In this document: positions 1,608 to 62,891 of the stretch, one piece after another | Layout of the letters: every line of letters begins with the position of its first letter | How positions within the stretch are numbered: the stretch's first letter is position 1 | From: Enterobacteria phage vB_EcoM_IME540 | Sequence record: MT150133.1 | Length of the DNA: 64,000 bases | Reading direction: 5' to 3' (one strand) | Notes under the pieces: generated by a model | The model's input: the letters and a program-made list of their open reading frames with translations, nothing else | What the model was told of the DNA's origin: nothing | The model's database searches: none | Translations under genes and position numbers: made by a program

Positions 1608-4600
1608 ATGGCTACTTTAAAGCAAATCCAATTTAAAAGAAGTAAAGTAGCCGGTGTACGTCCGACACCGGCCCAGTTGGCTGAAGGCGAACTGGCTATT
1701 AACTTAAAGGACCGATTACTTTTTACTAAAGACGATACCGGAGCGATTATCGACCTTGGCTTTGCTAAAGGTGGTAATATTGACGGCAATGTTATTCATA
1801 CCGGTAACTACAATCAAACCGGTGATTATACCCTAAATGGTACCTTTACCCAAACAGGTGATTTTAATTTAACCGGTATTGCTCGCGTAACTCGTGATAT
1901 TATTGCTGCAGGTCAGATAATGACTGAAGGCGGAGAACTTATTTCTAAGAGTGCTTCAACTTCTCATTTGAGATTCTTTGACGGTGCATCACGTGAACGT
2001 GGTATTATCTTTTCTCCTAATAATGCAGGGTTGACAACTCAGGTAGTTAATATCCGTGTTCAAGATTATGCCGCTGGTAGCGAAAGCACTTATGCATTTT
2101 CAGGCAATGGTCAATTTACTTCACCTGAAGTATCGGCATGGAAATCTATTTCATCCCCACAAATTCTGACCGATAAAGTTATTACAAATGGTAAGAAAGC
2201 TGGCGATTATGATATATCTTCATTAGCAAATAATAATTCTGCCACGGATAAAAACTATTTGCGCGTTGTACGTACCGACCCGGCGTCTGCAATGCTCCAT
2301 GAAATTTGTGAAAATAACGGTATCAGTTGGTATTCTGGTTCAACCCCTACTGATTATATGTTGTCTTTTGCTTATTCTGGCGGTTTTCAAGCTGGACATT
2401 CGATTGCAGTAGGTATGGAATCAGGGCCTATGACATATTCAGCCTTAGGTAAAGGTTCTATTGCTTTGGGTGATAATGATACCGGATTAAAATGGCATCA
2501 AGATGGATATTATTTCAGCGTTAATAACGGCACAAGAACTTTACTGTACGGCCCTGCAGAAACAACTAGCCTAAGAAAATTTGTGGCCGGTTATTCTGTA
2601 AACGGTACCGATTTAACCACTCCTCCGTCGGAAAACTATGCATTAGCCACTGTTGTTACTTACCATGATAATAACGCGTATGGTGATGGCCAAACTCTTT
2701 TAGGTTATTATCAAGGTGGTAATTATCACCACTATTTCCGTGGTAAGGGTACTACAAACGTTAACACTGCAGGTGGTCTGTTAGTTACTCCTGGTAATAT
2801 TGATGTTGTTGGTGGTTCGGTTAATATTGACGGCCGCAACAATGCTTCTACTCTGTTTTTCAGAGGAAATACTACAGGAAATAGTTCAGTTGATAACATG
2901 TCTATCAACGTTTGGGGTAACACCTTTAGTACAGTAGATGGCTTTCGTAAAAACGTGATGGAAATATCTGATGATATTAGTTGGATGCATTATATCCAGC
3001 GCAATAAAGATAATACCATTGAGGCTGTATTAAATGGGCAACAAACTATTAACGAAAATCTTGTTGTTAAAAAAGATATTTTGGTTGATAGAGCGGTCCA
3101 CACCGCTGGTGAAATTACTACAAATGCTGTTAACGGGCTCCGCATCTGGAACAACGATTACGGGGTCATTTTTAGACGTTCAGAAGGAAGTCTTCACATT
3201 ATTCCTACTGCATTTGGTGAAGGTAAAAATGGTGATATCGGACCACTTCGTCCATTTAGTTTGGCTTTAGATACCGGTAAGGTTGTTATTCCTGACTTGG
3301 ATTTGAGTTATGCTTCTTTTGCAGCAAACGGCTATATTAAATTCGGTGGACATGGTGCAGGTGCAGGCGGTTACGATATTCAATATGCACAAGCAGCTCC
3401 TGTTTTCCAAGAAATTGATGATGATGCTATAAACAAATATTATCCTATTGTTAAACAGAAGTTTTTAAACAGCAAAGCTGTTTGGTCTTTAGGTACTGAA
3501 ATTAATTCAGGTACATTTGTTTTACACCATATCAAAGAAGATGGTTCACAAGGCCATACATCAAGATTTAACGCTGATGGTACAGTTAACTTTCCGGATA
3601 ACGTTCTGGTCGATGGTGGTATTAACATGAAAGGCGTGATGACTTTTGACGCCGGACATTTAGGATCACAAGATTATTTTAAATTTAACCATTTGGGTGA
3701 TAGTAATAATGCTCGTGATAACATCATCCAGTTAGAAGATAGTCAAGGCGCTCATTTTTCCACTGAACGTACTTTAGCGACAGGTGCAATTAAAACTCGT
3801 TTCTTTGGCGAAACATCCACTGATGGTACATTATACCTAAATCAGATGAATAATAGCTCTGAACGATTCTCTATTAATAATTGGGGAAATTCAGAAGTTG
3901 GTCGCGCGGCAGTGATGGAAGTCAAAGATTCCAAAGGTTATCACTTCTATACTGAACGCAGGACAGATAACAGTTTGAATTTTGATGTTGGTGGCAATTT
4001 TACTGCGCATGGACCTTCCGGAATAACCATCAAAAACTCTGCTGGCGCTCGCCACATCTGGTTTAAAGATGATAGCGAATCGGAAAAGGCTGTTATCTGG
4101 GCTACAGATGAGGGTATTTTACATATACGAAATAATTATGGGGGTTCATTTAGTCATCACTTCCGGGGTGCAATGATTCTAGCGGAAGAGCGTGTTCCAT
4201 ATAATAGTGAATACGCTCTTATCCGTGGTAATATTTCCGGTGGTGCATGGGTAGACTGGCGAGATCGTCCGGCTGGATTGTTGGTAGACTGTCAGGACTC
4301 ACGAAATCAAGCATATAACATTTGGAAAGCTACTCATTGGGGCGAACAGCACATTGCGGCGATGGGTGTTCATGCCGGCGGTGGTAATCCTCATGTTGTA
4401 TTGCATGTGGGTGGGAGTGATTACGCATTTGGATTTAACGGTGATTTTACTGCTGGTGCTGCTGTATATTGTAACGACGTTTATATTCGTTCTGACCGTC
4501 GTCTGAAAATTAATGTTGAAGACTACGAAGAGAATGCGGTGGATAAGGTAAATAAACTCAAAGTTAAAACCTATGATAAAGTTAAATCTCTTTCTGACCG

Positions 4601-4877: not shown

Positions 4878-5681
4878 ATGGCAGTAGTTGGTGTTCCTGG
4901 TTGGATTGGAAGTTCAGCCGTAAATGAAACGGGCCAGCGCTGGATGAGTCAAGCGGCTGGTCAATTAAGATTAGGTGTTCCTTGCTGGATGAGTCAATTT
5001 GCAGGTCGCTCAAGAGAAATTATTCATACACTTGGAGCGGACCACAACTTTAACGGACAATGGTTTAGAGACCGTTGTTTTGAAGCCGGTGCTGCACCTA
5101 TTGTGTTTAATATTGTAGGCGATATAGTATCTTACGACCGTAACGTTCCGCTGTTCTTTATGAATGGTGATACTCCTAATGAATATGTTACTTTGAATAT
5201 TCATGGTGGGGTTCATATGTGGGGACGTGGTGGTCATGGCGGTTGGACCCACTCAGGTGGAGACGGTAACGGTCAATGGGGTGGCGATTGTATAGTCAAC
5301 CATATAGGTCATAGACTACGTATTTGGAACTATGGGGTTATCTGTGGCGGTGGCGGTGGTGGTGGTGGCATTGCGTATCGTCCTCACTCAGGTGCTAACT
5401 GGCAAGATATCGGTGGTGGTGGTGGACGTCCATTTGGTCCTGGTGGCGGTGGTGGATACTCCGGTGGTGGTGCTTCTTATGAAAGCCCTGGTGGTGGATA
5501 CGATTATGGTAATGCCCACTCAGGTCGTGGCGGTGATGCTGGCGGCGCTGGCGGCAACGCATGGAATGATGGTGGTAAAGTTCTTAAAGTTGGGGCTGGG
5601 GGCGGTTCTGGAGCTGCTGTTGCCATTTCTGCTCCTGCATGGGGCGCGACAGGTACGATTTACGGTCCTTGGCTTAGTTAA
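4878..5681 (+). CDS. 38: tail fiber tip adhesin gp38 (T2/T6-type, glycine-rich motifs)
   Basis: 267 aa directly after gp37; several poly-Gly stretches (GGGGGGGG, GGGGG) separated by short variable segments, as in T2-type receptor-binding gp38; SD GGAG. Confidence 0.8.
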
Positions 5682-5686
5682 GAAAT

Positions 5687-5694
5687 TATAAATA
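5687..5694 (+). promoter_or_regulatory. T4-type late promoter core TATAAATA
   Basis: Exact TATAAATA about 19 nt upstream of holin start, followed by SD AAGGAG. Confidence 0.55.
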
Positions 5695-5712
5695 TCTTTA
5701 AAGGAGAAAAGT

Positions 5713-6366
5713 ATGGAACCAAAAGTAGGAATATCATTATCAGACCTACTTTTTGGACTTCTTGATAGAATTTTTAAAGATACTTCTTCCGGGAAAGTAG
5801 TTTTTTCCCGGGTCCTAGTCGTGATATTATTGTTCTTTATGGCATTGGTTTGGTATAAAGGCGAGTATATTCTAAACTTTTATAAAGAGACAACTTATGC
5901 CTCTTATACTGAAATGATTAGACAAGACCAGGACAATAGATTTAAAATTGCGGCTATCGAGCAGCTCCGAATAGTGCATTCTTCTTCAGGCGCAGACTTC
6001 ACAGCAATATATTCTTTTAGACCAACCAACATGAATTATTTTGTGGATATGGTGGCTTACGAGGGTAAATTACCGGAAACGGTAGACGCAAAAAATACGG
6101 GAGGGTTTCCAATTGACAAAACGTCAGTAGAATATATGGTGGGAGTTAACGGGAACTATTTTGAATCAAGTACCGAAACTGTATTCCTTCCTACAAAGAA
6201 GAAAACACAATTCACGTATATGTTTTCGTGCCCGTTTTTTAATTTGGATAACGTCTACGCCGGCTCGATATCGTTGTACTGGTATGATATCAAACCGGAT
6301 TTAGGATTTCCTAGACTTTCGTCTATGTGCGGTCAGGCTGGGAGGACATTAGGTCGAACACGTTAG
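5713..6366 (+). CDS. t: holin T
   Basis: 217 aa; strong match to recalled T4 holin (LFG.LDR.FKD...GKV..SRV.VVILLF.MA.VWY, YSFRP.N.NYFVD..AYEGKLP, FLPTKK, YMFSCPFFNLDN.YAG). Confidence 0.95.
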   Translation: MEPKVGISLSDLLFGLLDRIFKDTSSGKVVFSRVLVVILLFFMALVWYKGEYILNFYKETTYASYTEMIRQDQDNRFKIAAIEQLRIVHSSSGADFTAIYSFRPTNMNYFVDMVAYEGKLPETVDAKNTGGFPIDKTSVEYMVGVNGNYFESSTETVFLPTKKKTQFTYMFSCPFFNLDNVYAGSISLYWYDIKPDLGFPRLSSMCGQAGRTLGRTR

Positions 6367-8893: not shown

Positions 8894-10218
8894 AGAGCCT
8901 CCAAATCTTTAACATACTCAGTTACCACATCAGTGGTTTTCCAGTATTGATGCTCTTCTTTCTTAGCCTTGGCTTCGAGGGCCAGTTTCTTGGCTTCATC
9001 GGATGTGATATGGAAAATGTTCATGGCCACTAGTTTATCGGCATATTCGCCATAGACTTTATTACCAGCCAATTCCTCAGTTAAAACCTTACGGGTCTTA
9101 CCTTGGATAACTACAGTCCCATCAATAACATCTTTGATAAATGTAGCTTTAGCCAATGCTAGTTTAAAAGCTTCTTCGGTTTCGATGATTTTACCATCAA
9201 TACGTTTTTGTACAAAGGTCTTACGGACCTCAACGAAATCACGAATCAGTTCAACTGCATCTTCGTAAACCTTAAGCTTACCTTTTTCATTAATGACGGT
9301 CAGGTTTTGTGAACGACGTTCGATTAACCCGAAGTCCTTCATGAGTTTTTCGTGTTTCTTATCTTCATCAGTAGGCAATTCGTATTCTTTACGAATCTTA
9401 ACCTTGAAGCCAAAACCGTTCTCATCACAGTCATCATCATATGTGATATACCCTTTGTCTTCCAGAGGGTCTAATATCTTAGCCACATATGTTTCACGGT
9501 CATATTTGTACGGGATTTCCGTGATATGCATTTGGGTTCGGGATGTGAACTTATACGTTCCACGAATCTCATAACTACCAGGTTCAATCTCAACAACATC
9601 ACCGCGGAATTCAGGATAAGCCACTTTGGGTTTGGTTACTCGTTTTTCCTGAAGAATTTGCAGTACAGCTTTCTTAACAGAATCAAAACTATGAGGAAGA
9701 ATATTAGTTGCATAACCAGTTGCAATACCGGAAACGCCATTAAGAAGAACAGTAGGAATAATAGGCAGATAAAAAGCCGGTGGCTTATGTTCAACATCCG
9801 CATGAACCGGAGCATATTCTGTGTCCTTATAAACTTTTGCAAAGTTACTTCCAATACGAGCAAAAATATAACGAGAGGCTGCAGCTTTTTGAACCAATCG
9901 GGAACCAAAGTTACCTTGACCGTCTAACAATGGATAGTTGTTGTTCCATGTGTTAGCCATCAAAGCCCCTGCTTCCTGAGCAGAACCTTCACCGTGGTGA
10001 TATCCGAGGTCGGCTACACCACCAGCGATAGAAGCCAGTTTGTGGAATTTTTCTTTATTACCACGAGCCATATCAAGACAACGAGCCACTACAAAACGTT
10101 GTACAGGTTTAAAGCCATCAATCATATTTGGAATGGCTCGGTTTTCGACAGTATACATTGCATAAGCCAATGCTTCGTTGTCGATAATACTTTTTAAACC
10201 ACGAGATGTTAATTCCAT
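8890..10218 (-). CDS. 52: DNA topoisomerase II medium subunit gp52 (GyrA-like)
   Basis: 442 aa; near-identical over long stretches to recalled T4 gp52 (LKSIIDNEALAYAMYTVENRAIPNMIDGFKPVQRF, GNFGSR.VQKAAASRYIFAR). Confidence 0.97.
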   Translation of the reverse strand: MELTSRGLKSIIDNEALAYAMYTVENRAIPNMIDGFKPVQRFVVARCLDMARGNKEKFHKLASIAGGVADLGYHHGEGSAQEAGALMANTWNNNYPLLDGQGNFGSRLVQKAAASRYIFARIGSNFAKVYKDTEYAPVHADVEHKPPAFYLPIIPTVLLNGVSGIATGYATNILPHSFDSVKKAVLQILQEKRVTKPKVAYPEFRGDVVEIEPGSYEIRGTYKFTSRTQMHITEIPYKYDRETYVAKILDPLEDKGYITYDDDCDENGFGFKVKIRKEYELPTDEDKKHEKLMKDFGLIERRSQNLTVINEKGKLKVYEDAVELIRDFVEVRKTFVQKRIDGKIIETEEAFKLALAKATFIKDVIDGTVVIQGKTRKVLTEELAGNKVYGEYADKLVAMNIFHITSDEAKKLALEAKAKKEEHQYWKTTDVVTEYVKDLEAL

Positions 10219-55362: not shown

Positions 55363-55836
55363 TCATTTAAGCGATTTCCTCAGTTGTTTTTTGAATGAAT
55401 CCACCATTTGTTTCTTAGTGTCAGATTCATTATAAGTCATTCCATGTGAAAGCATTTCAGCAATCATTTCTTCCTTACCCAACCTGCTGAACTCTTTGGT
55501 TTTATCAGGAACGAAATTAGGATGAATATTGTTTTCAGTATAATCAGCTTTCAGATAGACCAGCAAATTCTCTAACCATTCGAGGTAGTCAACGTTTTGA
55601 CCTTTAAGACCAGAACGGTTGAACTTATGCTTCATTTGTCCTTCTGCAGCATTGCACAGGTTACATAGTAAACCACGAACCTTACCGGCTTTTGGCCCGT
55701 TTAACTCGTGGTCGTGGTCAAGGTGGTTACTTTGAACATCAGGGTTTAATTCACGTTTACAAATCAAACACTTACCACATTGTGCATCATAAAGTTTTTG
55801 TTTTTCTTCTTTGTATAATTTGCCGGTCAACAACAT
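55363..55836 (-). CDS. 49: endonuclease VII gp49 (Holliday junction resolvase)
   Basis: 157 aa; near-identical to recalled T4 gp49 (MLLTGKLYKEEKQK.YDAQ.GKCLIC.RELNPDVQ.NHLDHDHELNGPKAGKVRGLLCNLCNAAEGQMKHKFNRSGLKGQ). Confidence 0.95.
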   Translation of the reverse strand: MLLTGKLYKEEKQKLYDAQCGKCLICKRELNPDVQSNHLDHDHELNGPKAGKVRGLLCNLCNAAEGQMKHKFNRSGLKGQNVDYLEWLENLLVYLKADYTENNIHPNFVPDKTKEFSRLGKEEMIAEMLSHGMTYNESDTKKQMVDSFKKQLRKSLK

Positions 55837-55841
55837 AATAA

Positions 55842-55873
55842 ACCCTTACCATTATTAGATAAGGGTATTTATT
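55842..55873 (-). promoter_or_regulatory. gene 49 leader: late-promoter-like AATAAATA abutting a hairpin that contains the SD
   Basis: Minus strand AATAAATA then ACCCTTA-(11 nt)-TAAGGGT; the 3' arm includes the SD; resembles the T4 gene 49 early-versus-late translational control. Confidence 0.4.
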
Positions 55874-56057
55874 ATTTTTCAAATGTACTATAAAACGAGC
55901 GATGCAACCGTTTAAATTGTCGAAGCATCTTTTTAGTAGGACGGGTGTATAATCCTACACAGGTGGCCATAAACTGGTCGGTAGGACTTCCTTTAATAAG
56001 AAGTTTCCAGACCTTACCACCGTTTAACTTTTCGGTATAAATCAATTCAGTTTTCAT
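55872..56057 (-). CDS. small basic protein, PTKRQ-motif paralog family (copy C)
   Basis: Track ORF begins at TTG; ATG MKTELIY; motif TRPTKKMLRQFKRLHR. Confidence 0.55.
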   Translation of the reverse strand: MKTELIYTEKLNGGKVWKLLIKGSPTDQFMATCVGLYTRPTKKMLRQFKRLHRSFYSTFEK

Positions 56058-56103
56058 AGTAAAACCCAAACTCCATATCAATTAAATCATTGTTTGAAGG
56101 TTC

Positions 56104-56133
56104 ATTATACTCTATTTCGGAATCGTTGTAAAC
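56104..56133 (-). promoter_or_regulatory. early promoter (-35 GTTTAC, 18 nt, -10 TATAAT)
   Basis: Consensus hexamers upstream of paralog copy C. Confidence 0.6.
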
Positions 56134-56179
56134 AGGTTCCTCTGGCTCGACAGTTTCCCATCGAGCGGTATACCATGGC

Positions 56180-56488
56180 TTAACGGTCACACCACCAACT
56201 ACTTACTTCAAAATCAGGTTCACCGTGTTCCCAGTACCAAGGGCCGACTGGATGCCAATCACCGTGTTCATCTTCTTCAAATTCTTCAGATTCAAGCCCA
56301 ACGTATTGCCATTGGACTTCATAAGCAGTACCACCGATTACAACGGTGTTCTCGCCATATGGATGGGCTACAACAAAGTCAATACCTTCTGCTTTGGCTA
56401 ACCAAACCATATATTCGTATAGTTTATATTCCAGGTCATCTTCGGTGCCATCACCTAGAAAAATGGTTTGTTCGTTTAATTCAATCAT
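56180..56488 (-). CDS. hypothetical acidic protein (102 aa)
   Basis: ATGA overlap with upstream ORF; Trp- and acid-rich. Confidence 0.55.
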   Translation of the reverse strand: MIELNEQTIFLGDGTEDDLEYKLYEYMVWLAKAEGIDFVVAHPYGENTVVIGGTAYEVQWQYVGLESEEFEEDEHGDWHPVGPWYWEHGEPDFEVSSWWCDR

Positions 56489-56673
56489 AACTCCACCATA
56501 AATTCAAATAGCTGGCCATGTACACAGGTATCAGTCCAACCCCATTCGTTGGCTTCTTCTTTTAACCAATCCGGGAGATTTGCCAATACGGTTTCTTTAC
56601 TAGGCGCAGGAGTATTAAACTCACTTGCAAACTCTCTTGCGCAGGTTTCATAAGCTGTATCAAATTCGGTCAT
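56485..56673 (-). CDS. hypothetical protein (62 aa)
   Basis: ATG overlaps stop of upstream micro-ORF (ATGA). Confidence 0.55.
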   Translation of the reverse strand: MTEFDTAYETCAREFASEFNTPAPSKETVLANLPDWLKEEANEWGWTDTCVHGQLFEFMVEL

Positions 56674-56831
56674 TTAAAGTTCCAGAATGAAGCACCAACC
56701 AGAAATAAAGGCCAACAAATCATAGACGTCAGCCACCAACAAAAATCACCGGAATCATCTAATTTAGCTAGGGTCTTAGCATAACCAATACCGATGATAA
56801 GATACAAAACAACCAACATTAATTCAATCAT
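56670..56831 (-). CDS. small membrane peptide (53 aa), translationally coupled to nrdC
   Basis: ATG overlaps nrdC TGA stop; MIELMLVVLYLIIGIGYAKTLAKLDDSGDFCWWLTSMICWPLFLVGASFWNFK with two hydrophobic segments; sub-threshold ORF. Confidence 0.45.
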   Translation of the reverse strand: MIELMLVVLYLIIGIGYAKTLAKLDDSGDFCWWLTSMICWPLFLVGASFWNFK

Positions 56832-57091
56832 TTGAAATAAGCTCGCAGTCGGTCAAAGCCACCAATAGAAGTTCCGTCCGGAGCAAATACCTGAGGCATA
56901 GTCAAACCTACCTGAGATTCGCGACCAAGAGCAGTCAAGAGTTCAGCAATCTTCTCATCATCAAATACACCTTTTTCCGGCATCACGTTAATGAATTCGT
57001 AAGGTTGTTTCTTAACATCAAGCAGACGTTTGGCATTATCACAGAAAACACAACGGTGGATATTTGAATCGTAACCATAAACTTTAAACAT
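56828..57091 (-). CDS. nrdC: glutaredoxin NrdC (T4 thioredoxin)
   Basis: 87 aa; near-identical to recalled T4 NrdC (MFKVYGYDSNIH.CV.CDNAKRLL.VKKQP.EFIN.MPEKGVFDDEKIAELLT.LGR, GLTMPQVFAPDG); CxxC = CVFC. Confidence 0.88.
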   Translation of the reverse strand: MFKVYGYDSNIHRCVFCDNAKRLLDVKKQPYEFINVMPEKGVFDDEKIAELLTALGRESQVGLTMPQVFAPDGTSIGGFDRLRAYFK

Positions 57092-57092
57092 T

Positions 57093-57332
57093 TTAAATTC
57101 CTAATATTTGTTTGAATGCTTCAGAACGGTCGAGTTCTGTTCCATATTTTTCCATGTGCTCATATTTTAAATTATACACATCAGATAGTATATTATTATA
57201 CGAGCGAGTTAAAGCAGATTTTAAAACTGAATAACTGTCTGGGAATTTACCATGCTCTTTATAATAAGCTAGGGTAAGTTCGCGGACCGCCTTATCGGCC
57301 GCCTCTACATATTCTTTGCGCTTTGCCATTTT
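57093..57332 (-). CDS. hypothetical protein (80 aa)
   Basis: Track ORF trimmed to ATG MAKRKEY; still overlaps the upstream ORF by about 40 nt, so one of the two boundaries is uncertain. Confidence 0.45.
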
Positions 57333-57627
57333 CGTCTCGCTCAAATCGGTGTTTACAATGACGGCATTTGTAACGAAGATTACTAGTCTGCCAATGGACC
57401 AATTGGACCTGTTCTGTACCGCACTCAGGACAGTTAGGAACATCCTTAGAAGCTTGTTCTCGTCGTGCGACCATAGCCATTACAGCATCCCAATTAACGG
57501 CATCACCATAATCATCACAACCATGAATTTTACCAACCAATTCAACTTCAACATCCTCGGCTTTAATAAATTTCAATAAACCAGTATTAGATGCTGAAGC
57601 AATATCTTCAGCTAAACGTTGTTTCAT
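57292..57627 (-). CDS. hypothetical zinc-ribbon protein (111 aa)
   Basis: C-terminal CPECG ... CRHC cysteine pairs; ATG overlaps upstream stop (ATGA). Confidence 0.5.
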
Positions 57628-58634
57628 TTCAGCAGCTCCAGAGCCTGTTCAAGACGGTCTAAACGATTGGTAGACTCTTCCCAAAGTTTCTTGGCGGCGG
57701 TATATTGGCCAGTCAGTTTTTTGTTGATAGCAAGGGCGTCTTTATACGCTTTTTCCAAGGCAACGACTTCCGGTAACTTGGATTTAGTAATTGGTGTAGG
57801 GGCCATGATAGGGCTGTTCAAGTCGTTAATCAAGTCTTCTAATGTAGCAGGCTCTTTATCAGTGTTCACAATTTCCTCACATTTTTCTTTGTAAATTTCA
57901 GCATCAGTTTTTGGAACGGTACATTTGATTTCACGGACTGTTACTAAGACCTCATATCCTTTCCAGCCTAAGTGGTGTTTAACTTCTTGGGTCTCATATT
58001 TCTCTACGGTATCCATCAGAGCTAAAGCTTGTTCGATAGTATTCAAGGTATCGTAAGCAATATCTTGATACTTTACAACTTCCGCATCATCTTTAGGTTT
58101 CCTATTAGGTGACCAAATAACAGAAATAATAGCTTTTCCTTTATAACTATTTGTTTTAATCATGCAATTAGCCATCGGGTGAATAGTACGACAATCACCG
58201 GAAACTATAGTTTTAGAGGCCGCTTTGAGAATTAATGCAGAGTTAGCCTTGAATTCGCTAACCCAACGTTGCGGAAATAAACTATTAGGGTCCATACCTT
58301 TAATTTTGATATAACCTTTTATGGTATCACCAAACCATTTGTAGCTAACAACACGGTTGGAACCTGGATATTTCTCTTTACCGAACTCAGAAAGGATGTC
58401 CTTATTGACCAGGCGCGAAAGCAGTCGAGAACCTTTAAATGTTTTAATGATATCATGAATGCACAAACGGCCTGCAATCTTTTCGATTTCAGCTTTGAAA
58501 CAGCGCGATAATGCATCATCAATTTGGTCGACCCATTTATTGATATTAGAAACTATTACCTCGTATGGGGTTAACGGAGGGGTGTTGGTAGTGATATACG
58601 TAGTAAAGGCATTGATGTATTCAGTACGAGTCAT
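57624..58634 (-). CDS. hypothetical protein (336 aa)
   Basis: Track ORF start lies in the promoter -10; ATG MTRTEYINAF follows SD GAGGAG; no motif recognised. Confidence 0.7.
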   Translation of the reverse strand: MTRTEYINAFTTYITTNTPPLTPYEVIVSNINKWVDQIDDALSRCFKAEIEKIAGRLCIHDIIKTFKGSRLLSRLVNKDILSEFGKEKYPGSNRVVSYKWFGDTIKGYIKIKGMDPNSLFPQRWVSEFKANSALILKAASKTIVSGDCRTIHPMANCMIKTNSYKGKAIISVIWSPNRKPKDDAEVVKYQDIAYDTLNTIEQALALMDTVEKYETQEVKHHLGWKGYEVLVTVREIKCTVPKTDAEIYKEKCEEIVNTDKEPATLEDLINDLNSPIMAPTPITKSKLPEVVALEKAYKDALAINKKLTGQYTAAKKLWEESTNRLDRLEQALELLK

Positions 58635-58661
58635 GATATTCTCCTCAGTAGATTTAAAAAG

Positions 58662-58691
58662 ATTATACTCCATCCGTCCTTGGATGTAAAC
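58662..58691 (-). promoter_or_regulatory. early promoter (-35 GTTTAC, 18 nt, -10 TATAAT)
   Basis: Consensus hexamers; leader CTTTTTAAATCTACTGAGGAG. Confidence 0.6.
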
Positions 58692-58692
58692 A

Positions 58693-59574
58693 TTATTTTA
58701 GAGCTAATACTGCCGCGCTAAGCTTGTCACGCTGGATTTCCATGTTCTTGATGCGAATCAATACGTCTTGAATACTCTTTTTCTCATCTTCGATCTGGCC
58801 GTTTAAACGGTGGATTGATTCCTGGAGGTGGTCCTCATGATACTTCTCGATAGGTTTCATCGTAGGGTTAGTAACAACCAAAGAATTATCAGGTTTAATT
58901 TTCCAATGATACGGTTCAGAATTGAATGGACTCGGTACAGCCGTGGTTTTGAATCTGTCATAGGCTGCATACTGGCCTACGCTGTCACATGATACTGCAG
59001 AGATACGTCGTTCCATTTCCGGTTCCTTTTGTTGGGATTGATAAGGGGCATAAGACAAAAGATATTCACGAGTTAGTTTAACATTAAAATACACTGCATC
59101 GGGCCGTCCGGAACAATCAGCATATTCATCTGTTGTAACCTTATATGATTCTACAGCCTTAATACGGGTCATTGCTTCCCTGAATAAGGTTTCAAATGCT
59201 TCACGAAGGGCCTTATTACCTTTTGAGGTAGGACGGAAACGAACTTGAATGCCGTCATTCAGAATATTAATGACTAGGTTACGAGCCGTAAAATTAATAT
59301 TCTTGATATTGACAGGAACCGTAGAAATACGTCCCGCGGTAGCCAAGAGGTCTTTGATATTAGCTCGCAATGTTACACCAAACAGGTGGGCTGGGCCACG
59401 GCAATAATCGTTCAAAGAACTAATATAAGTCCCTTTACGACCTACACCATAAGTATAATTACCATTACAAATATGGCCGAAGTCGGCCAGCCGATCGATA
59501 GCGATACGCTTGGTTACACCAAAATCATATCGGGAATATTCTTTACGTGTTTTAATGTTCATATTAAAGTCCAA
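58693..59574 (-). CDS. hypothetical protein (293 aa)
   Basis: Co-directional ORF with C-terminal coiled-coil-like region. Confidence 0.7.
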   Translation of the reverse strand: MDFNMNIKTRKEYSRYDFGVTKRIAIDRLADFGHICNGNYTYGVGRKGTYISSLNDYCRGPAHLFGVTLRANIKDLLATAGRISTVPVNIKNINFTARNLVINILNDGIQVRFRPTSKGNKALREAFETLFREAMTRIKAVESYKVTTDEYADCSGRPDAVYFNVKLTREYLLSYAPYQSQQKEPEMERRISAVSCDSVGQYAAYDRFKTTAVPSPFNSEPYHWKIKPDNSLVVTNPTMKPIEKYHEDHLQESIHRLNGQIEDEKKSIQDVLIRIKNMEIQRDKLSAAVLALK

Positions 59575-59779
59575 ATAATTTTTTATAGAATTTAGCCATA
59601 GGCCACACTATAGCCAGAACAATACCTGTAACCCAGAATATAGGCCAGGCGAGAGTAGTGAACACTGCATCATACTCATCACCTTTTTCAAAACAGCTGT
59701 CAAATTTGTGGATTAATACAGTAGTAATGAATCCTATCACAAGGTATCCAAAAATAGAACCAATAATTAAAGTAGCCAT
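59564..59779 (-). CDS. hypothetical membrane protein (71 aa)
   Basis: Two hydrophobic segments (LIIGSIFGYLVIGFITTVLI, AWPIFWVTGIVLAIVW). Confidence 0.6.
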   Translation of the reverse strand: MATLIIGSIFGYLVIGFITTVLIHKFDSCFEKGDEYDAVFTTLAWPIFWVTGIVLAIVWPMAKFYKKLFGL

Positions 59780-59780
59780 A

Positions 59781-60620
59781 TTAATCCTTAAGAAGATTTA
59801 GGATATCGATATATTTCTGGCGTTCAGCCTTGGCTTTAGCATTCAAACCAGAGAGTCGGAAAATCTCATCATCTTGTTGCTGAATTGTAACATTCAAGCA
59901 AGTAAGCAAATTGCTAAAATACTCGATTTGAGCTTGATGCTTCTCATTGCTGCGCACTGGTACAGGTTCCGGTTTAGGAGCTTCTGAATGACTCTTAACT
60001 TCATTACCTGGCTTAACAAGTTTAATACGCCAGCCTGTACTGGTATTAACATTATCGAAGGTAAGAATACCGCTACGTTCGAGTTCAGACAAAGCCAATC
60101 GAAGATGGAATTTCCAGTTGTCATATTGACAACCACTAAAAGTTGAAGTAAGATACTCGTTTTCGTTACCTGGTTGGTTGACAATATTAAAGATAATCCA
60201 ATCGCCTGAACCATTAGTCTTAAATGGCATTTGCTTATCTTTACCTAAAGCTAGACGAGCACCCAGTGCTAGTAAACGTCGTTGGTTAGTACGAAGGTCT
60301 TTAACAACTTCATCAAATGACATCGCCGGGATTAAACGACCATAGAGGTCATAGCCTTTGTTATAATTTCTAAGAATAATTCTGGCGTTAGCACGAGTCA
60401 ACATACCGGCCCTGTGAAGAGATTTCATGACTCGGTCTTCTAACGTAAACATCCTAGTCTTGTCAAAGATTTTAGTGAATTCATCTACAGAAATACAAAC
60501 TTCAAACTTTTCCCACATCATGGCCAAAACCTTTTCAACCACTTCTTTAGAACTCGGAATACGTCCGAATTTAACAACTTTTTTAACTTCAGAACGAATT
60601 TGATTAATTGCCTGTGACAT
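59781..60620 (-). CDS. hypothetical protein (279 aa)
   Basis: Co-directional ORF; no motif recognised. Confidence 0.7.
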   Translation of the reverse strand: MSQAINQIRSEVKKVVKFGRIPSSKEVVEKVLAMMWEKFEVCISVDEFTKIFDKTRMFTLEDRVMKSLHRAGMLTRANARIILRNYNKGYDLYGRLIPAMSFDEVVKDLRTNQRRLLALGARLALGKDKQMPFKTNGSGDWIIFNIVNQPGNENEYLTSTFSGCQYDNWKFHLRLALSELERSGILTFDNVNTSTGWRIKLVKPGNEVKSHSEAPKPEPVPVRSNEKHQAQIEYFSNLLTCLNVTIQQQDDEIFRLSGLNAKAKAERQKYIDILNLLKD

Positions 60621-60683
60621 AATAATTTCCTCAGTAAGTAATTAAGAACCTAGAACCATTATACCATCCTTGGTATAAAGCGT

Positions 60684-61208
60684 TTATGCGAGAACCGTCT
60701 TTAAACGCTCTTCAAATTTCTGAAGCAGAGCTTGGCGTTCAGCTCGTTGTGATTTGTACTGCTCGATACGACCTGAAGTGAGGGCGTACTGTTCGTTTAC
60801 TGATTCCCGCATGAATTCAGGAATCTCTTTACAAGCTTTGATTTCGTCAAACTTATCAATAACAGCTTGTTGTTCAGCAATCAGATTATCGAAATAAGCG
60901 ATATCAGATTTAACGTTTGCCAGGTCGGATTCGGTAGGCATTAAACGTTTGTTACGTTCAGCTTGATAAGCTTGATTGGTTTCACGGCTCCAGTGAAGAG
61001 TACGTTTTTTGTTGGTGTTTTTATAGAGCTCTACAATACCAACTGAATCGATGATAACAATCCAGTTCCAACGGCTTTTGTAAATCTCTCCTCCAGATAC
61101 AGTAATCTCATTACCACAAGCAACGTCGTTAAAGAACTTGCTTTGTTTTTCAGATTTGAAATTACCGTTGTTGAAATTAATCAGTGAAAAAATATCTTTA
61201 GCGTTCAT
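60684..61208 (-). CDS. hypothetical protein (174 aa)
   Basis: ATG after SD GGAGG in conserved leader. Confidence 0.7.
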   Translation of the reverse strand: MNAKDIFSLINFNNGNFKSEKQSKFFNDVACGNEITVSGGEIYKSRWNWIVIIDSVGIVELYKNTNKKRTLHWSRETNQAYQAERNKRLMPTESDLANVKSDIAYFDNLIAEQQAVIDKFDEIKACKEIPEFMRESVNEQYALTSGRIEQYKSQRAERQALLQKFEERLKTVLA

Positions 61209-61234
61209 GATAACCTCCAGTAGTTGATATGTCT

Positions 61235-61263
61235 ATAGTATCATTTCTACTGGAGATGTAAAC
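61235..61263 (-). promoter_or_regulatory. early promoter (-35 GTTTAC, TGa-extended -10 TACTAT)
   Basis: Spacer CTCCAGTAG is complementary to leader CTACTGGAG, which contains the SD. Confidence 0.6.
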
Positions 61264-61265
61264 AA

Positions 61266-61607
61266 CTAATAGAAACTTTTTTCACCTGCTTGTCCACTAA
61301 ACCACGCTGATTGGGTCACAGTTTTCCTTTGTTGAGCGATACGCTCTTGATAATCACTACGAATGGCGCGCTGCTTATCTCTGAAGTCGCCTGCCAACTT
61401 TACCTGCTTGCGGTCTAGATTTATTAAGGCCTGGGTCTTCGCGGCCAAGAGCAATCTCCTGTAGTCTCCTTCTTCGGATTCAGTTTTATAAACTCTATTA
61501 GTATATCCGTCGACAACTTCTTTATCATAGTCCTCGACGGACTGTTTCATGGCATCACGATGGGCCAAACCTGCGTTATAAAGATTGTAAATAAATTGTT
61601 CGAACAT
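61266..61607 (-). CDS. hypothetical protein (113 aa)
   Basis: Co-directional ORF. Confidence 0.65.
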   Translation of the reverse strand: MFEQFIYNLYNAGLAHRDAMKQSVEDYDKEVVDGYTNRVYKTESEEGDYRRLLLAAKTQALINLDRKQVKLAGDFRDKQRAIRSDYQERIAQQRKTVTQSAWFSGQAGEKSFY

Positions 61608-61616
61608 AATTTATCC

Positions 61617-62597
61617 TTATTTCAGAAGTGTAACTTCAGAGATTTCACCCCAGTCATTTTTATCGGTGGCAATGAAATCCGCCAGATAAAGAGCTGTACG
61701 TAATGATACGTTACGAAGACGAGATACATTAGCCTTCATCCATGCTAAAGCTTGGTAAGTCTCGGCGTCAGTCAGACCACGGTTTTGCATCATATCAGTG
61801 GACAGGATAACGTCTTCAACACGAACCATAATCTCTTCGTTCGAGTGAACTCCGAGGTCTAAGTAAACTGAACGCGATACTAAAGCCTGGAGGTGTGGAG
61901 CAAGTTTAGTTCCACGCTCTAATTCACGGTCGATATCAACGTTGGTGATGAACACGATGGTGCCTTCGTATTCGAATTCTTTATCGATGTTTTTATCATC
62001 GAGATAAGAACTTGAAGTGCTCCAGCACACCTTACGTTTTTCACCGGTATCCAATGCCGCTTTCAGAAGGTTCAGGATATCCATATCAGAGAATACATCA
62101 ACATCATCGATAAGAAGAACACTATTAGGGCCGCGGTTATTCCAAAGCTGCTCGTAAAGACCGATTCCACTAATCTTTCCGTTGATTGATTTATATTCGA
62201 TAGTTTCATTTTCGTGGGCATTCTGTAATGCTTTATCCAAAGAATACGTTTTACCAATACCTGCGGCACCAGAGATGATAAGGGAACGAATTTTACCATC
62301 GATGATTCCGTTGGTCATCATGTTCATTACTTTAAAACGTTTGTTGATGCGATGTTTCATTTCTTCAGCGGATTCAGTAACAACTGCAGGAGCTTCAGCA
62401 CCTTCGGTTTCGATATCACATTTGAACACCCATACACCACGTTCAACACCATCAATCTGTACGAATACCTTGCCATCACCGAGGTGAGCTTCGGATTCAT
62501 GAATTTTATTAGGGAACCAGGTTTTACCTGAACTCATGAACGTACCAGAGATTACATTACCGCGATAGATACCTTTGTTGATTTTGATAGTTAACAT
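61617..62597 (-). CDS. AAA+ family ATPase (327 aa)
   Basis: Walker A GAAGIGKT and Walker B LLIDDVD; track ORF extends upstream through the promoter, true start ATG MLTIKINKG after SD GGAGAA. Confidence 0.7.
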   Translation of the reverse strand: MLTIKINKGIYRGNVISGTFMSSGKTWFPNKIHESEAHLGDGKVFVQIDGVERGVWVFKCDIETEGAEAPAVVTESAEEMKHRINKRFKVMNMMTNGIIDGKIRSLIISGAAGIGKTYSLDKALQNAHENETIEYKSINGKISGIGLYEQLWNNRGPNSVLLIDDVDVFSDMDILNLLKAALDTGEKRKVCWSTSSSYLDDKNIDKEFEYEGTIVFITNVDIDRELERGTKLAPHLQALVSRSVYLDLGVHSNEEIMVRVEDVILSTDMMQNRGLTDAETYQALAWMKANVSRLRNVSLRTALYLADFIATDKNDWGEISEVTLLK

Positions 62598-62634: not shown

Positions 62635-62663
62635 ATAATAACATGCTCTACGAGAGTGTAAAC
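62635..62663 (-). promoter_or_regulatory. early promoter (-35 GTTTAC, 17 nt, -10 TATTAT)
   Basis: Directly downstream of terminator at 62683; leader GGACCTATCAAATCTACTGAG. Confidence 0.6.
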
Positions 62664-62682: not shown

Positions 62683-62703
62683 AAAAAGGAACCCGAAGGT
62701 TCC
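62683..62703 (-). terminator. intrinsic terminator (GGAACC-TTCG-GGTTCC plus TTTTT)
   Basis: Same hairpin sequence as at 878 and 28237; starts in the stop codon of the upstream gene. Confidence 0.65.
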
Positions 62704-62891
62704 TAAATTGCATTCCAATAATTATGGAAGCGGATATTATTAATGGCCCACTCAACAAATCGTCTTATCTGTTTAGGCGTTGGTTTACATACGTACTTGA
62801 TATTGCCGCGGCGTCCAGTTTCTTTACATACTGCTTCAAGATACCATCGGCGAGTTTTATGAGGCCTTCCATATGATAAAAAGACCTTCAT
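62703..62891 (-). CDS. small basic protein, PTKRQ-motif paralog family (copy D)
   Basis: Track ORF begins at TTG; ATG MKVFLSYGRPHK; motif CKPTPKQIRRF. Confidence 0.55.
   Translation of the reverse strand: MKVFLSYGRPHKTRRWYLEAVCKETGRRGNIKYVCKPTPKQIRRFVEWAINNIRFHNYWNAI

Follow-up and report, generated by a model that had tools for sequence, protein, structure and literature searches.

A T4-type nrdC.4–nrdC.9 accessory cassette in a Dhakavirus coliphage, with a candidate counterpart of the anti-Dsr1 protein NrdC.5

Gene content and T4 homology of the block

We analysed a 64,000-nucleotide (nt) stretch of DNA, hereafter the window, from Enterobacteria phage vB_EcoM_IME540 (sequence record MT150133.1), in which a listing of open reading frames (ORFs) found six of them on the minus strand at 57624–61607, between nrdC and a gene for an AAA+ ATPase. 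An initial annotation, made from the sequence alone, had given the positions and sizes of these ORFs correctly, although its title counted five genes where there are six, and had stated that none of the products matches a T4 protein. The latter did not hold: five of the six are clear homologues of T4 NrdC.4, NrdC.5, NrdC.6, NrdC.8 and NrdC.9, encoded in the same order as in T4. We regard the block as the orthologue of the T4 nrdC.4–nrdC.9 accessory cassette in a Bp7-like (Dhakavirus) coliphage, an identity made secure by sequence comparison. A 5.8-kb stretch is 97.4% identical in nucleotides to Escherichia phage Bp7 (Dhakavirus, Straboviridae) and matches 634 phage records, and the Bp7 record already labels three of the block's genes nrdC.4, nrdC.6 and nrdC.8 and the flanking genes nrdC.10 and nrdC.11. 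The families are thus already known T-even ORF families, near-identical to genes deposited for Bp7, and mostly ordinary in this respect.

The six products were compared with the T4 nrdC region proteins by blastp. The nrdC.4-like product of 336 amino acids (aa) aligned over its full length with NrdC.4 (44% identity, expect value (E) 1.7e-84). Its ORF mechanically spans 57624–58673 (minus strand, 349 aa), but we place the start at the second ATG, at 58634 (57624..58634), because the first ATG, at 58673, lies upstream of the -10 element of a promoter described below, whose last base is at 58662. In PHROGs the protein belongs to phrog_1435 (E 1.9e-146, aligned from residue 14), as do both T4 NrdC.3 and NrdC.4, and the N-terminal half of T4 NrdC.3 also matched it by blastp (E 5.6e-7); NrdC.4-type homologues bear the precomputed family PF26897, whose model is missing in the local Pfam copy. 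The nrdC.5-like gene (minus strand) encodes 289 aa from the ATG at 59562 (58693..59562) or 293 aa from an in-frame TTG (58693–59574), and the ATG start agrees with the conserved M(N)IKTR N-terminus of homologues. Its similarity to T4 NrdC.5 in blastp was low (24%, or about 23%, identity over 305 columns, E 9e-17), but both proteins belong to the Pfam family DUF7235, with 394.2 bits (cut-off 30; E 6e-118; model positions 6–307 of 307) for the window copy and 420.6 bits (E 5e-126) for T4 NrdC.5.

The remaining homologues lie further upstream on the same strand. The 279-aa nrdC.6-like protein (59781–60620) is 47% identical to T4 NrdC.6 (E 4.5e-36), falls into phrog_2257 (E 2.5e-122) and agrees with the NrdC.6 family profile, including the invariant core NYNKGYDLYGR...NQRRLLALGARLA; homologues of this type bear PF26899. 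The 174-aa nrdC.8-like protein (60684–61208) shares 69% identity with NrdC.8 (E 2e-91) and matches phrog_2274 (E 2.5e-102). The 113-aa nrdC.9-like protein (61266–61607) shares 29% identity with NrdC.9 (E 1.7e-8), belongs with it to Pfam DUF7203 (E 2.6e-26 and 92.4 bits against a cut-off of 27; T4 NrdC.9, E 3.6e-15), and has in common with it a C-terminal SAWFSG...E(K/R)SF(Y/F) motif. T4 NrdC.3 and NrdC.4 (phrog_1435), NrdC.6, NrdC.8 and NrdC.9 are all uncharacterised, non-essential ORFs.

The sixth product, of 71 aa (59564–59779, minus strand), found no match among the T4 nrdC region proteins and belongs to phrog_7899 (E 6e-28). Hydrophobic segments of 19 residues at 5–23 and 40–58, predicted as two transmembrane helices, bear out its earlier description as a membrane protein. 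A protein 49% identical to it is encoded at the same position in phage 212. Unlike in T4, its gene separates the nrdC.5-like and nrdC.6-like genes; the window has no counterpart of the NrdC.3 paralogue or of NrdC.7, the latter being in T4 a different membrane protein at another position. In Bp7, the copy of the 71-aa gene (locus extract 5068–5281) matches the window protein in two frames (residues 1–58 and 60–71) and is annotated as a shorter ORF, Bp7 being frameshifted relative to the window.

All six ORFs are real genes under purifying selection. Against Dhakavirus ESCO10, ratios of nonsynonymous to synonymous substitution rates (dN/dS) were 0.14 for the 336-aa, 0.17 for the 289/293-aa, 0.45 for the 71-aa, 0.17 for the 279-aa, 0.03 for the 174-aa and 0.33 for the 113-aa product, and homologues of all six are present in other Straboviridae. 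We also considered that these ORFs could be decaying or non-functional filler in a hyperplastic region, as the non-essentiality of the T4 genes, the occasional frameshifts in relatives (the T4 reference nrdC.6 and the Bp7 71-aa gene) and the absence of nrdC.10 from phage 212 might suggest. However, the six ORFs are intact, with dN/dS well below 1 and their order kept across three genera, and promoter-like sites and Shine-Dalgarno sequences occur at the same positions in relatives. Purifying selection essentially refutes the filler interpretation, which we consider highly improbable.

The T4 reference (NC_000866) frameshift lies near the 3' end of nrdC.6 (locus extract 9990–10141, minus strand), where a different frame gives ...ISIQQYDDEIFRLSGLSSKAKSEREKLIKIVDLLKS*, exactly as at the C-terminus of the Sf25 homologue. 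Given that an intact 296-aa nrdC.6 is present in the T4 assembly OZ209057 (locus extract 4913–5803) and in the HIDEN-SEQ annotation, the 275-aa product of the T4 reference stems either from a sequencing error or from a truncation specific to the strain, with removal of the coiled-coil tail. The nrdC.8-like protein is 98.9% identical to its ESCO10 counterpart and 90.9% identical to that of Bp7, its neighbours being 98–100% identical to Bp7; this pattern suggests a recombination patch and mosaicism among Dhakaviruses. The ESCO10 record (OM386655.1) names the nrdC.5-like product 'endonuclease II', the nrdC.6-like product 'inhibitor of host transcription' and the nrdC.8-like product 'spanin', and many other records call nrdC.x genes 'thioredoxin'; these names are annotation artefacts.

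The block had been placed between nrdC and the AAA+ ATPase gene, and this position was confirmed, with the addition that homologues of nrdC.1 and nrdC.2 also lie in the interval. Downstream of the block, nrdC (56828–57091) is separated from it by an nrdC.1-like gene (57093–57329) and an nrdC.2-like gene (57292–57627), both on the minus strand, contiguous with the nrdC.4-like gene and encoding proteins 68% and 72% identical to T4 NrdC.1 and NrdC.2 in blastp. The nrdC.2-like protein carries a CPxC...CxxC zinc-ribbon signature with several weak Pfam zinc-ribbon matches. Two small ORFs at 56485–56831, of 62 aa and a hydrophobic 53 aa, lie between nrdC and a gp49.3 homologue, where T4 has no gene. 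On the other side, the 326-aa nrdC.10-like AAA+ ATPase gene (61617..62597, minus strand), whose ATG aligns with the T4 NrdC.10 start, encodes a protein 76% identical to NrdC.10 (E 2.7e-174) with weak Pfam AAA matches. Phage 212 (locus extract 2623–3489) lacks this gene, keeps the rest of the block order and has small ORFs of 93 and 68 aa between nrdC.11 and nrdC.9.

Promoters and transcription units

The consensus early promoters that the initial annotation had placed at 58662 and 61235 are both present and intergenic. The first, at 58690–58662 on the minus strand, is an early-type sigma-70 promoter (TTTACA-17-TATAAT, 11/12 consensus) followed by the Shine-Dalgarno sequence GAGGAG, and the second, at 61262–61235 on the same strand, reads TTTACA-16-TACTAT with a TG (9/12 consensus) and is followed by GGAGG. 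On sequence, both resemble T4-type early promoters, with a -35 of the (G)TTTAC(A/T) type, a -10 related to TATAAT, 16–18 nt spacing and an intergenic position. Number alone lends such calls no support, the region containing 19 promoter-like sites when 16.5±3.8 are expected, which is not above chance. The two calls are instead supported by their position and by promoter-like sites in the same gaps of T4 and phage 212: in T4, TTTACT-17-TATAAT precedes nrdC.4 and TTTACA-17-TACTAT precedes both nrdC.8 and nrdC.10, and phage 212 has a promoter-like site upstream of nrdC.4 and TGTACA-17-TATAAT upstream of nrdC.8. Both window promoters stand upstream of Shine-Dalgarno sequences containing GGAG. RegB cleaves the T4 nrdC.8 mRNA at its GGAG to a moderate extent (PMC1702504), and the window's nrdC.4-like and nrdC.8-like genes likewise have GGAG-containing Shine-Dalgarno sequences.

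A third element, aaaCGCTTTA-12 nt-TATAAT, lies at 60685–60658 on the minus strand, directly after the nrdC.8-like stop codon. T4 middle promoters are laid out as a consensus MotA box with a -10 element, and this sequence resembles a MotA-dependent middle promoter more closely than an early one. Its GCTTTA-12-TATAAT portion is the same in phage 212 (locus extract 4386–4413) and differs by one base in T4 (OZ209057 extract 4448–4475), so that it is essentially identical across three genera, although the gene downstream of it is nrdC.6 in the window and in phage 212 and nrdC.7 in T4. Downstream of this element in the window, the 279-aa, 71-aa and 289-aa genes are joined by TAAtATG stop/start junctions, by which the 71-aa gene appears translationally coupled to both neighbours. 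The 113-aa gene starts 9 nt after the stop codon of the AAA+ gene, lacks a separate promoter and probably shares a transcript with that gene. The AAA+ gene has its own promoter-like site at 62662–62635, with a counterpart in T4.

The view that each unit is driven by a consensus early promoter can therefore be kept for the nrdC.4-like and nrdC.8-like genes, but not for the 279/71/289-aa group, which stands behind the middle-promoter-like element, nor for the promoterless 113-aa gene, 9 nt behind the AAA+ gene. From the sequence, the early-type promoters would feed the nrdC.4-like and nrdC.8-like genes, the middle-type element would feed the coupled nrdC.6-like, 71-aa and nrdC.5-like genes, and the nrdC.9-like gene would be reached by read-through from the AAA+ promoter.

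Just upstream of the AAA+ promoter, at 62687–62704 on the minus strand, AGGAACCTTCGGGTTCCT and a T-run behind it form a strong terminator-like hairpin, at which one transcription unit probably gives way to another, and T4 has an equivalent hairpin between nrdC.11 and nrdC.10. Three other candidates were discarded. A CCAAGGATGG element common to the two promoter spacers was dropped, as it had 6 matches with one mismatch allowed when 2.85 were expected, a number reached in 7 of 100 shuffles. TAGACA-17-TATCAT at 61235–61207 was rejected as the driver of the 174-aa gene because its -10 overlaps the start codon at 61208. Finally, a hairpin at 59489–59474 within the nrdC.5-like ORF has no proper T-run and was regarded as chance.

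Protein architecture and possible paralogy

Searches of the six products against Pfam, PHROGs, NCBIfam and PADLOC returned nothing functional, the matches being limited to DUF7235, DUF7203 and PHROGs of unknown function, and sequence-based searches of the PDB, whether started from profiles or from single sequences, had no significant hit either. The earlier remark that these proteins carry no recognisable motif therefore holds as far as function is concerned, and by any criterion detectable in their sequences the six products are not enzymes. The profile and structure searches that had been proposed as a check did place the proteins, in DUF and unknown-function families and beside uncharacterised Straboviridae models, but assigned no function. 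The DUF7235 profile, run exhaustively with HMMER against 1.84 billion cluster representatives, recovered six proteins, including a 342-aa protein near-identical to T4 NrdC.5 and a 318-aa variant, which indicates that the family is very small; all members that could be identified are from T4-like phages.

The three largest proteins are built alike: a globular head is connected by a disordered linker to an amphipathic helix at the C-terminus, and this helix ends in LxxA(L/I/V)xxLK. The AlphaFold2 model of the 293-aa protein (mean predicted local distance difference test score (pLDDT) 65) has an alpha/beta head at residues 17–175, with pLDDT 73–92 over most blocks, a disordered stretch at 177–244 and a single long helix at 242–292. 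That of the 279-aa protein (pLDDT 80) has a confident helical domain at 3–123, a strand-strand-helix-strand-strand unit at 144–202, a disordered stretch at 209–225 and C-terminal helices at 225–278. The heads of both modelled proteins are predicted to contain the strand-strand-helix-strand-strand unit. In the looser form L-x-x-(A/I)-(L/I/V)-x-x-L-(K/N), the ending occurs in the window's 336-, 293- and 279-aa proteins, in T4 NrdC.3, NrdC.4 and NrdC.5, in the 318-aa DUF7235 variant and in Sf25 NrdC.6. Among 324 stop-to-stop segments of at least 60 aa in the window, the LxxA(L/I/V)xxLK ending is found in three, which are the three adjacent genes, with 0.3 expected by shuffling, the pattern having been chosen post hoc.

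Several observations make paralogy of NrdC.3, NrdC.4 and NrdC.5 probable, with NrdC.6 possibly a further paralogue. A joint alignment of the first three contains collinear motifs, namely an N-terminal M(K)TRxxY, L..FG, an ...ASRL helix, an ...M(D/E)xVE helix and, preceding the last helix, a P(K)P segment. A Foldseek search of viral models with the NrdC.5-like model returned only uncharacterised Straboviridae proteins of similar size (E 2.6e-8 to 4e-3, leaving out close homologues of the query), including a 308-aa Tequatrovirus protein (E 3e-4), which from its matching length would be NrdC.3, and Sf25 A0A2K9VMF6 (E 4e-3), which from its organism and length (378 aa) would be the NrdC.6-family protein P0162. 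At the level of profiles, phrog_26858 is matched by both the NrdC.3/NrdC.4 and the NrdC.5 types, each time weakly. A number of results weigh against this kinship. In hhalign, NrdC.5 matched NrdC.3/NrdC.4 weakly (E 0.009–0.012, probability 3–5%), and the comparison of NrdC.6 with NrdC.3, NrdC.4 and NrdC.5 gave no support (E 0.03–0.24). The DUF7235 search of 1.84 billion representatives recovered no NrdC.3, NrdC.4 or NrdC.6 protein. Furthermore, tails of the coiled-coil type can arise by convergence, and the definition of the C-terminal motif was itself post hoc.

Two possible resemblances to virion components were also followed. The head of the NrdC.5-like protein resembles phage tail terminator/completion proteins (lambda gpU, T5 p142, DUF3168 type) at 4–11% sequence identity, but the scores of RNA polymerase alpha/Rpb11 domains, nitroreductases and proteins designed de novo are nearly as good, pointing to a generic two-layer alpha/beta sandwich; with a mean pLDDT of 65 for the model, we treat this likeness as a lead only. 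The M(K)TR N-terminus was considered as a possible capsid-targeting sequence, which in T4 internal proteins reads MKTYQEFIAE, but the (L/I)-x-E cleavage motif was not seen in the first residues.

On the basis of this architecture, NrdC.3, NrdC.4, NrdC.5 and possibly NrdC.6 could be imagined as one diversifying superfamily of modular counter-defence proteins, in which the coiled-coil handle ending in LxxA(L/I/V)xxLK would oligomerise or dock on a shared partner and each rapidly diverging head would act against a different immune sensor (Dsr1 in the case of NrdC.5). Since the NrdC.5-like head resembles a virion-protein fold of the tail terminator type, it might even be a decoy that fails to activate the receptors by which phage structural proteins are sensed. 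We regard this superfamily proposal as speculative and distinctly unlikely as a whole.

NrdC.5, Dsr1 and counter-defence

T4 clones missing a genome segment fail to plate on ECOR17 owing to its Dsr1 sirtuin defence, and expression of the T4 early gene nrdC.5, then uncharacterised, restores plating on MG1655 carrying dsr1, with no mechanism given (Srikant, Guegler & Laub, 2022, eLife, PMC9391042). A literature search turned up no subsequent work on NrdC.5, on DUF7235 or on any anti-Dsr1 protein. Homology to characterised T4 nrdC.x proteins, which the initial annotation had named as speaking against its picture of an unassigned block, was thus found in part, T4 NrdC.5 having a published phenotype. 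The likeness of the window copy to T4 NrdC.5 (DUF7235, phrog_2351) extends beyond membership of the same Pfam family over its full length: the gene also lies between nrdC.4 and nrdC.6 homologues on the same strand, invariant residues are distributed along the whole protein, and both proteins end in K-L-x-x-A-(L/V)-x-x-L-(K/N). In contrast to the 340-aa T4 protein, the window copy of 289/293 aa lacks about 40 N-terminal residues.

Counter-defence functions have also been reported for neighbouring genes. NrdC.1 of T4 is a Septu inhibitor (preprint, bioRxiv 10.1101/2025.11.20.689424), and T6 Gp49.2, encoded a few genes away, inhibits OLD (PMC13096335). Both belong to the same neighbourhood and are small or medium-sized non-essential proteins without known domains, but they are unrelated in sequence to the block's six products. 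The window's nrdC.1-like gene lies just outside the block, and no Gp49.2 homologue was noted among the ORFs listed for 55500–57100, although no search aimed at one was made. The suggestion that the block is a home for anti-defence functions is therefore supported in general terms by the published activity of T4 NrdC.5 against Dsr1 and by the neighbours NrdC.1 (Septu) and Gp49.2 (OLD), and it extends to the remaining genes of the block by context alone.

Our preferred interpretation, which we hold to be reasonably probable, is that the block is a T4-type accessory cassette in a Dhakavirus whose large products act as stoichiometric binders, the NrdC.5-like copy being directed against a Dsr1-type sensor-effector. 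The three large proteins would bind other proteins stoichiometrically rather than act as catalysts, the C-terminal helix serving oligomerisation or docking and the divergent head providing specificity for targets among host immune or other host proteins. Given that T4 NrdC.5 lets the phage plate on Dsr1 cells and that the window copy is of the same family, we infer that the 289/293-aa protein would neutralise a sensor-effector of the Dsr1 type, or one closely related to it, and would probably do so by binding it directly. A small phage protein that silences a SIR2 NADase defence has a functional analogue in DSAD1, the SPbeta-type phage inhibitor of the DSR2 sirtuin defence, which according to published abstracts binds DSR2 and suppresses the NADase activity triggered by the tail tube protein. 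The host, the phage family and the target (DSR2 rather than Dsr1) differ from the case of the window, and the analogy is one of mode, not of family.

Several points weigh against this interpretation. The window copy is only ~23% identical to T4 NrdC.5, and its target may therefore have changed. Direct binding by NrdC.5 is an assumption, there being no published mechanism for the T4 protein. Of the families in the block, NrdC.4, NrdC.6, NrdC.8, NrdC.9 and the 71-aa protein have no known phenotype. Finally, gene-wide dN/dS values below 1 against ESCO10 give no direct sign of diversifying or positive selection.

A change of target is the core of one alternative, in which the NrdC.5-like protein is still an anti-defence protein but has been retargeted, so that the Dhakavirus, Mosigvirus and Tequatrovirus versions would each act against another sensor or another Dsr1/Avs7-type variant. 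DUF7235 falls into a few deeply separated clusters, as might be expected after such a history: one group is at least 64% identical to the window copy, another ~50% and the Tequatrovirus group ~22%. On the host side, Dsr1 recognises major capsid proteins of phages through a sensor domain that is homologous to the one in Avs7, common to many other effectors and highly diversified (PMC13581612). However, the residues that are invariant across the clusters are spread over the head, a KP(I/V)E.(Y/W)H segment and the terminal helix, suggesting a conserved mode of action. We therefore see retargeting as possible, though on balance rather unlikely.

The rates at which the genes have diverged bear on a broader alternative. 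Identity to T4 is 85% for NrdC, 76% for NrdC.10 and about 80–83% for NrdC.11, compared with 44% for NrdC.4, 24% for NrdC.5, 47% for NrdC.6 and 29% for NrdC.9, and phage 212 shows the same pattern of diverged block genes and conserved flanks. Proteins that are constrained (dN/dS below 0.5) yet far diverged between genera are compatible, as judged from these comparisons, with counter-defence genes. They could instead be accessory host-takeover or physiology factors unrelated to immunity, acting on host transcription, translation, the envelope or nucleotide metabolism and dispensable in rich medium on K-12, with an NrdC.5-like copy that has lost or never had anti-Dsr1 activity. Transposon sequencing on laboratory E. 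coli found nrdC.1–nrdC.11 of T4 all non-essential (bioRxiv 10.1101/2025.11.20.689424), and nrdC.3–nrdC.9 were without significant change in one HIDEN-SEQ differential comparison available to us. NrdC.5 is the only family member with a defence-related phenotype, and the strong conservation of NrdC.8 (69% to T4; dN/dS 0.03) is a better fit for a fixed target than for an arms race. On the other hand, three proteins of the gp49.2–nrdC.5 stretch have been reported to counter host defence systems, and divergence between genera beside conserved flanks, as in NrdC.4, NrdC.5 and NrdC.9, is typical of counter-defence genes, although this evidence is circumstantial. We judge an immunity-unrelated role for the block unlikely.

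The block of vB_EcoM_IME540 thus consists of ordinary, known gene families of largely unknown mechanism. It nevertheless lies in a T-even stretch with three reported counter-defence functions, against OLD, Septu and Dsr1. The ~23%-identical NrdC.5 homologue represents a natural variant for finding the residues needed in Dsr1 evasion, and the head-linker-helix architecture offers a concrete hypothesis for domain swaps.

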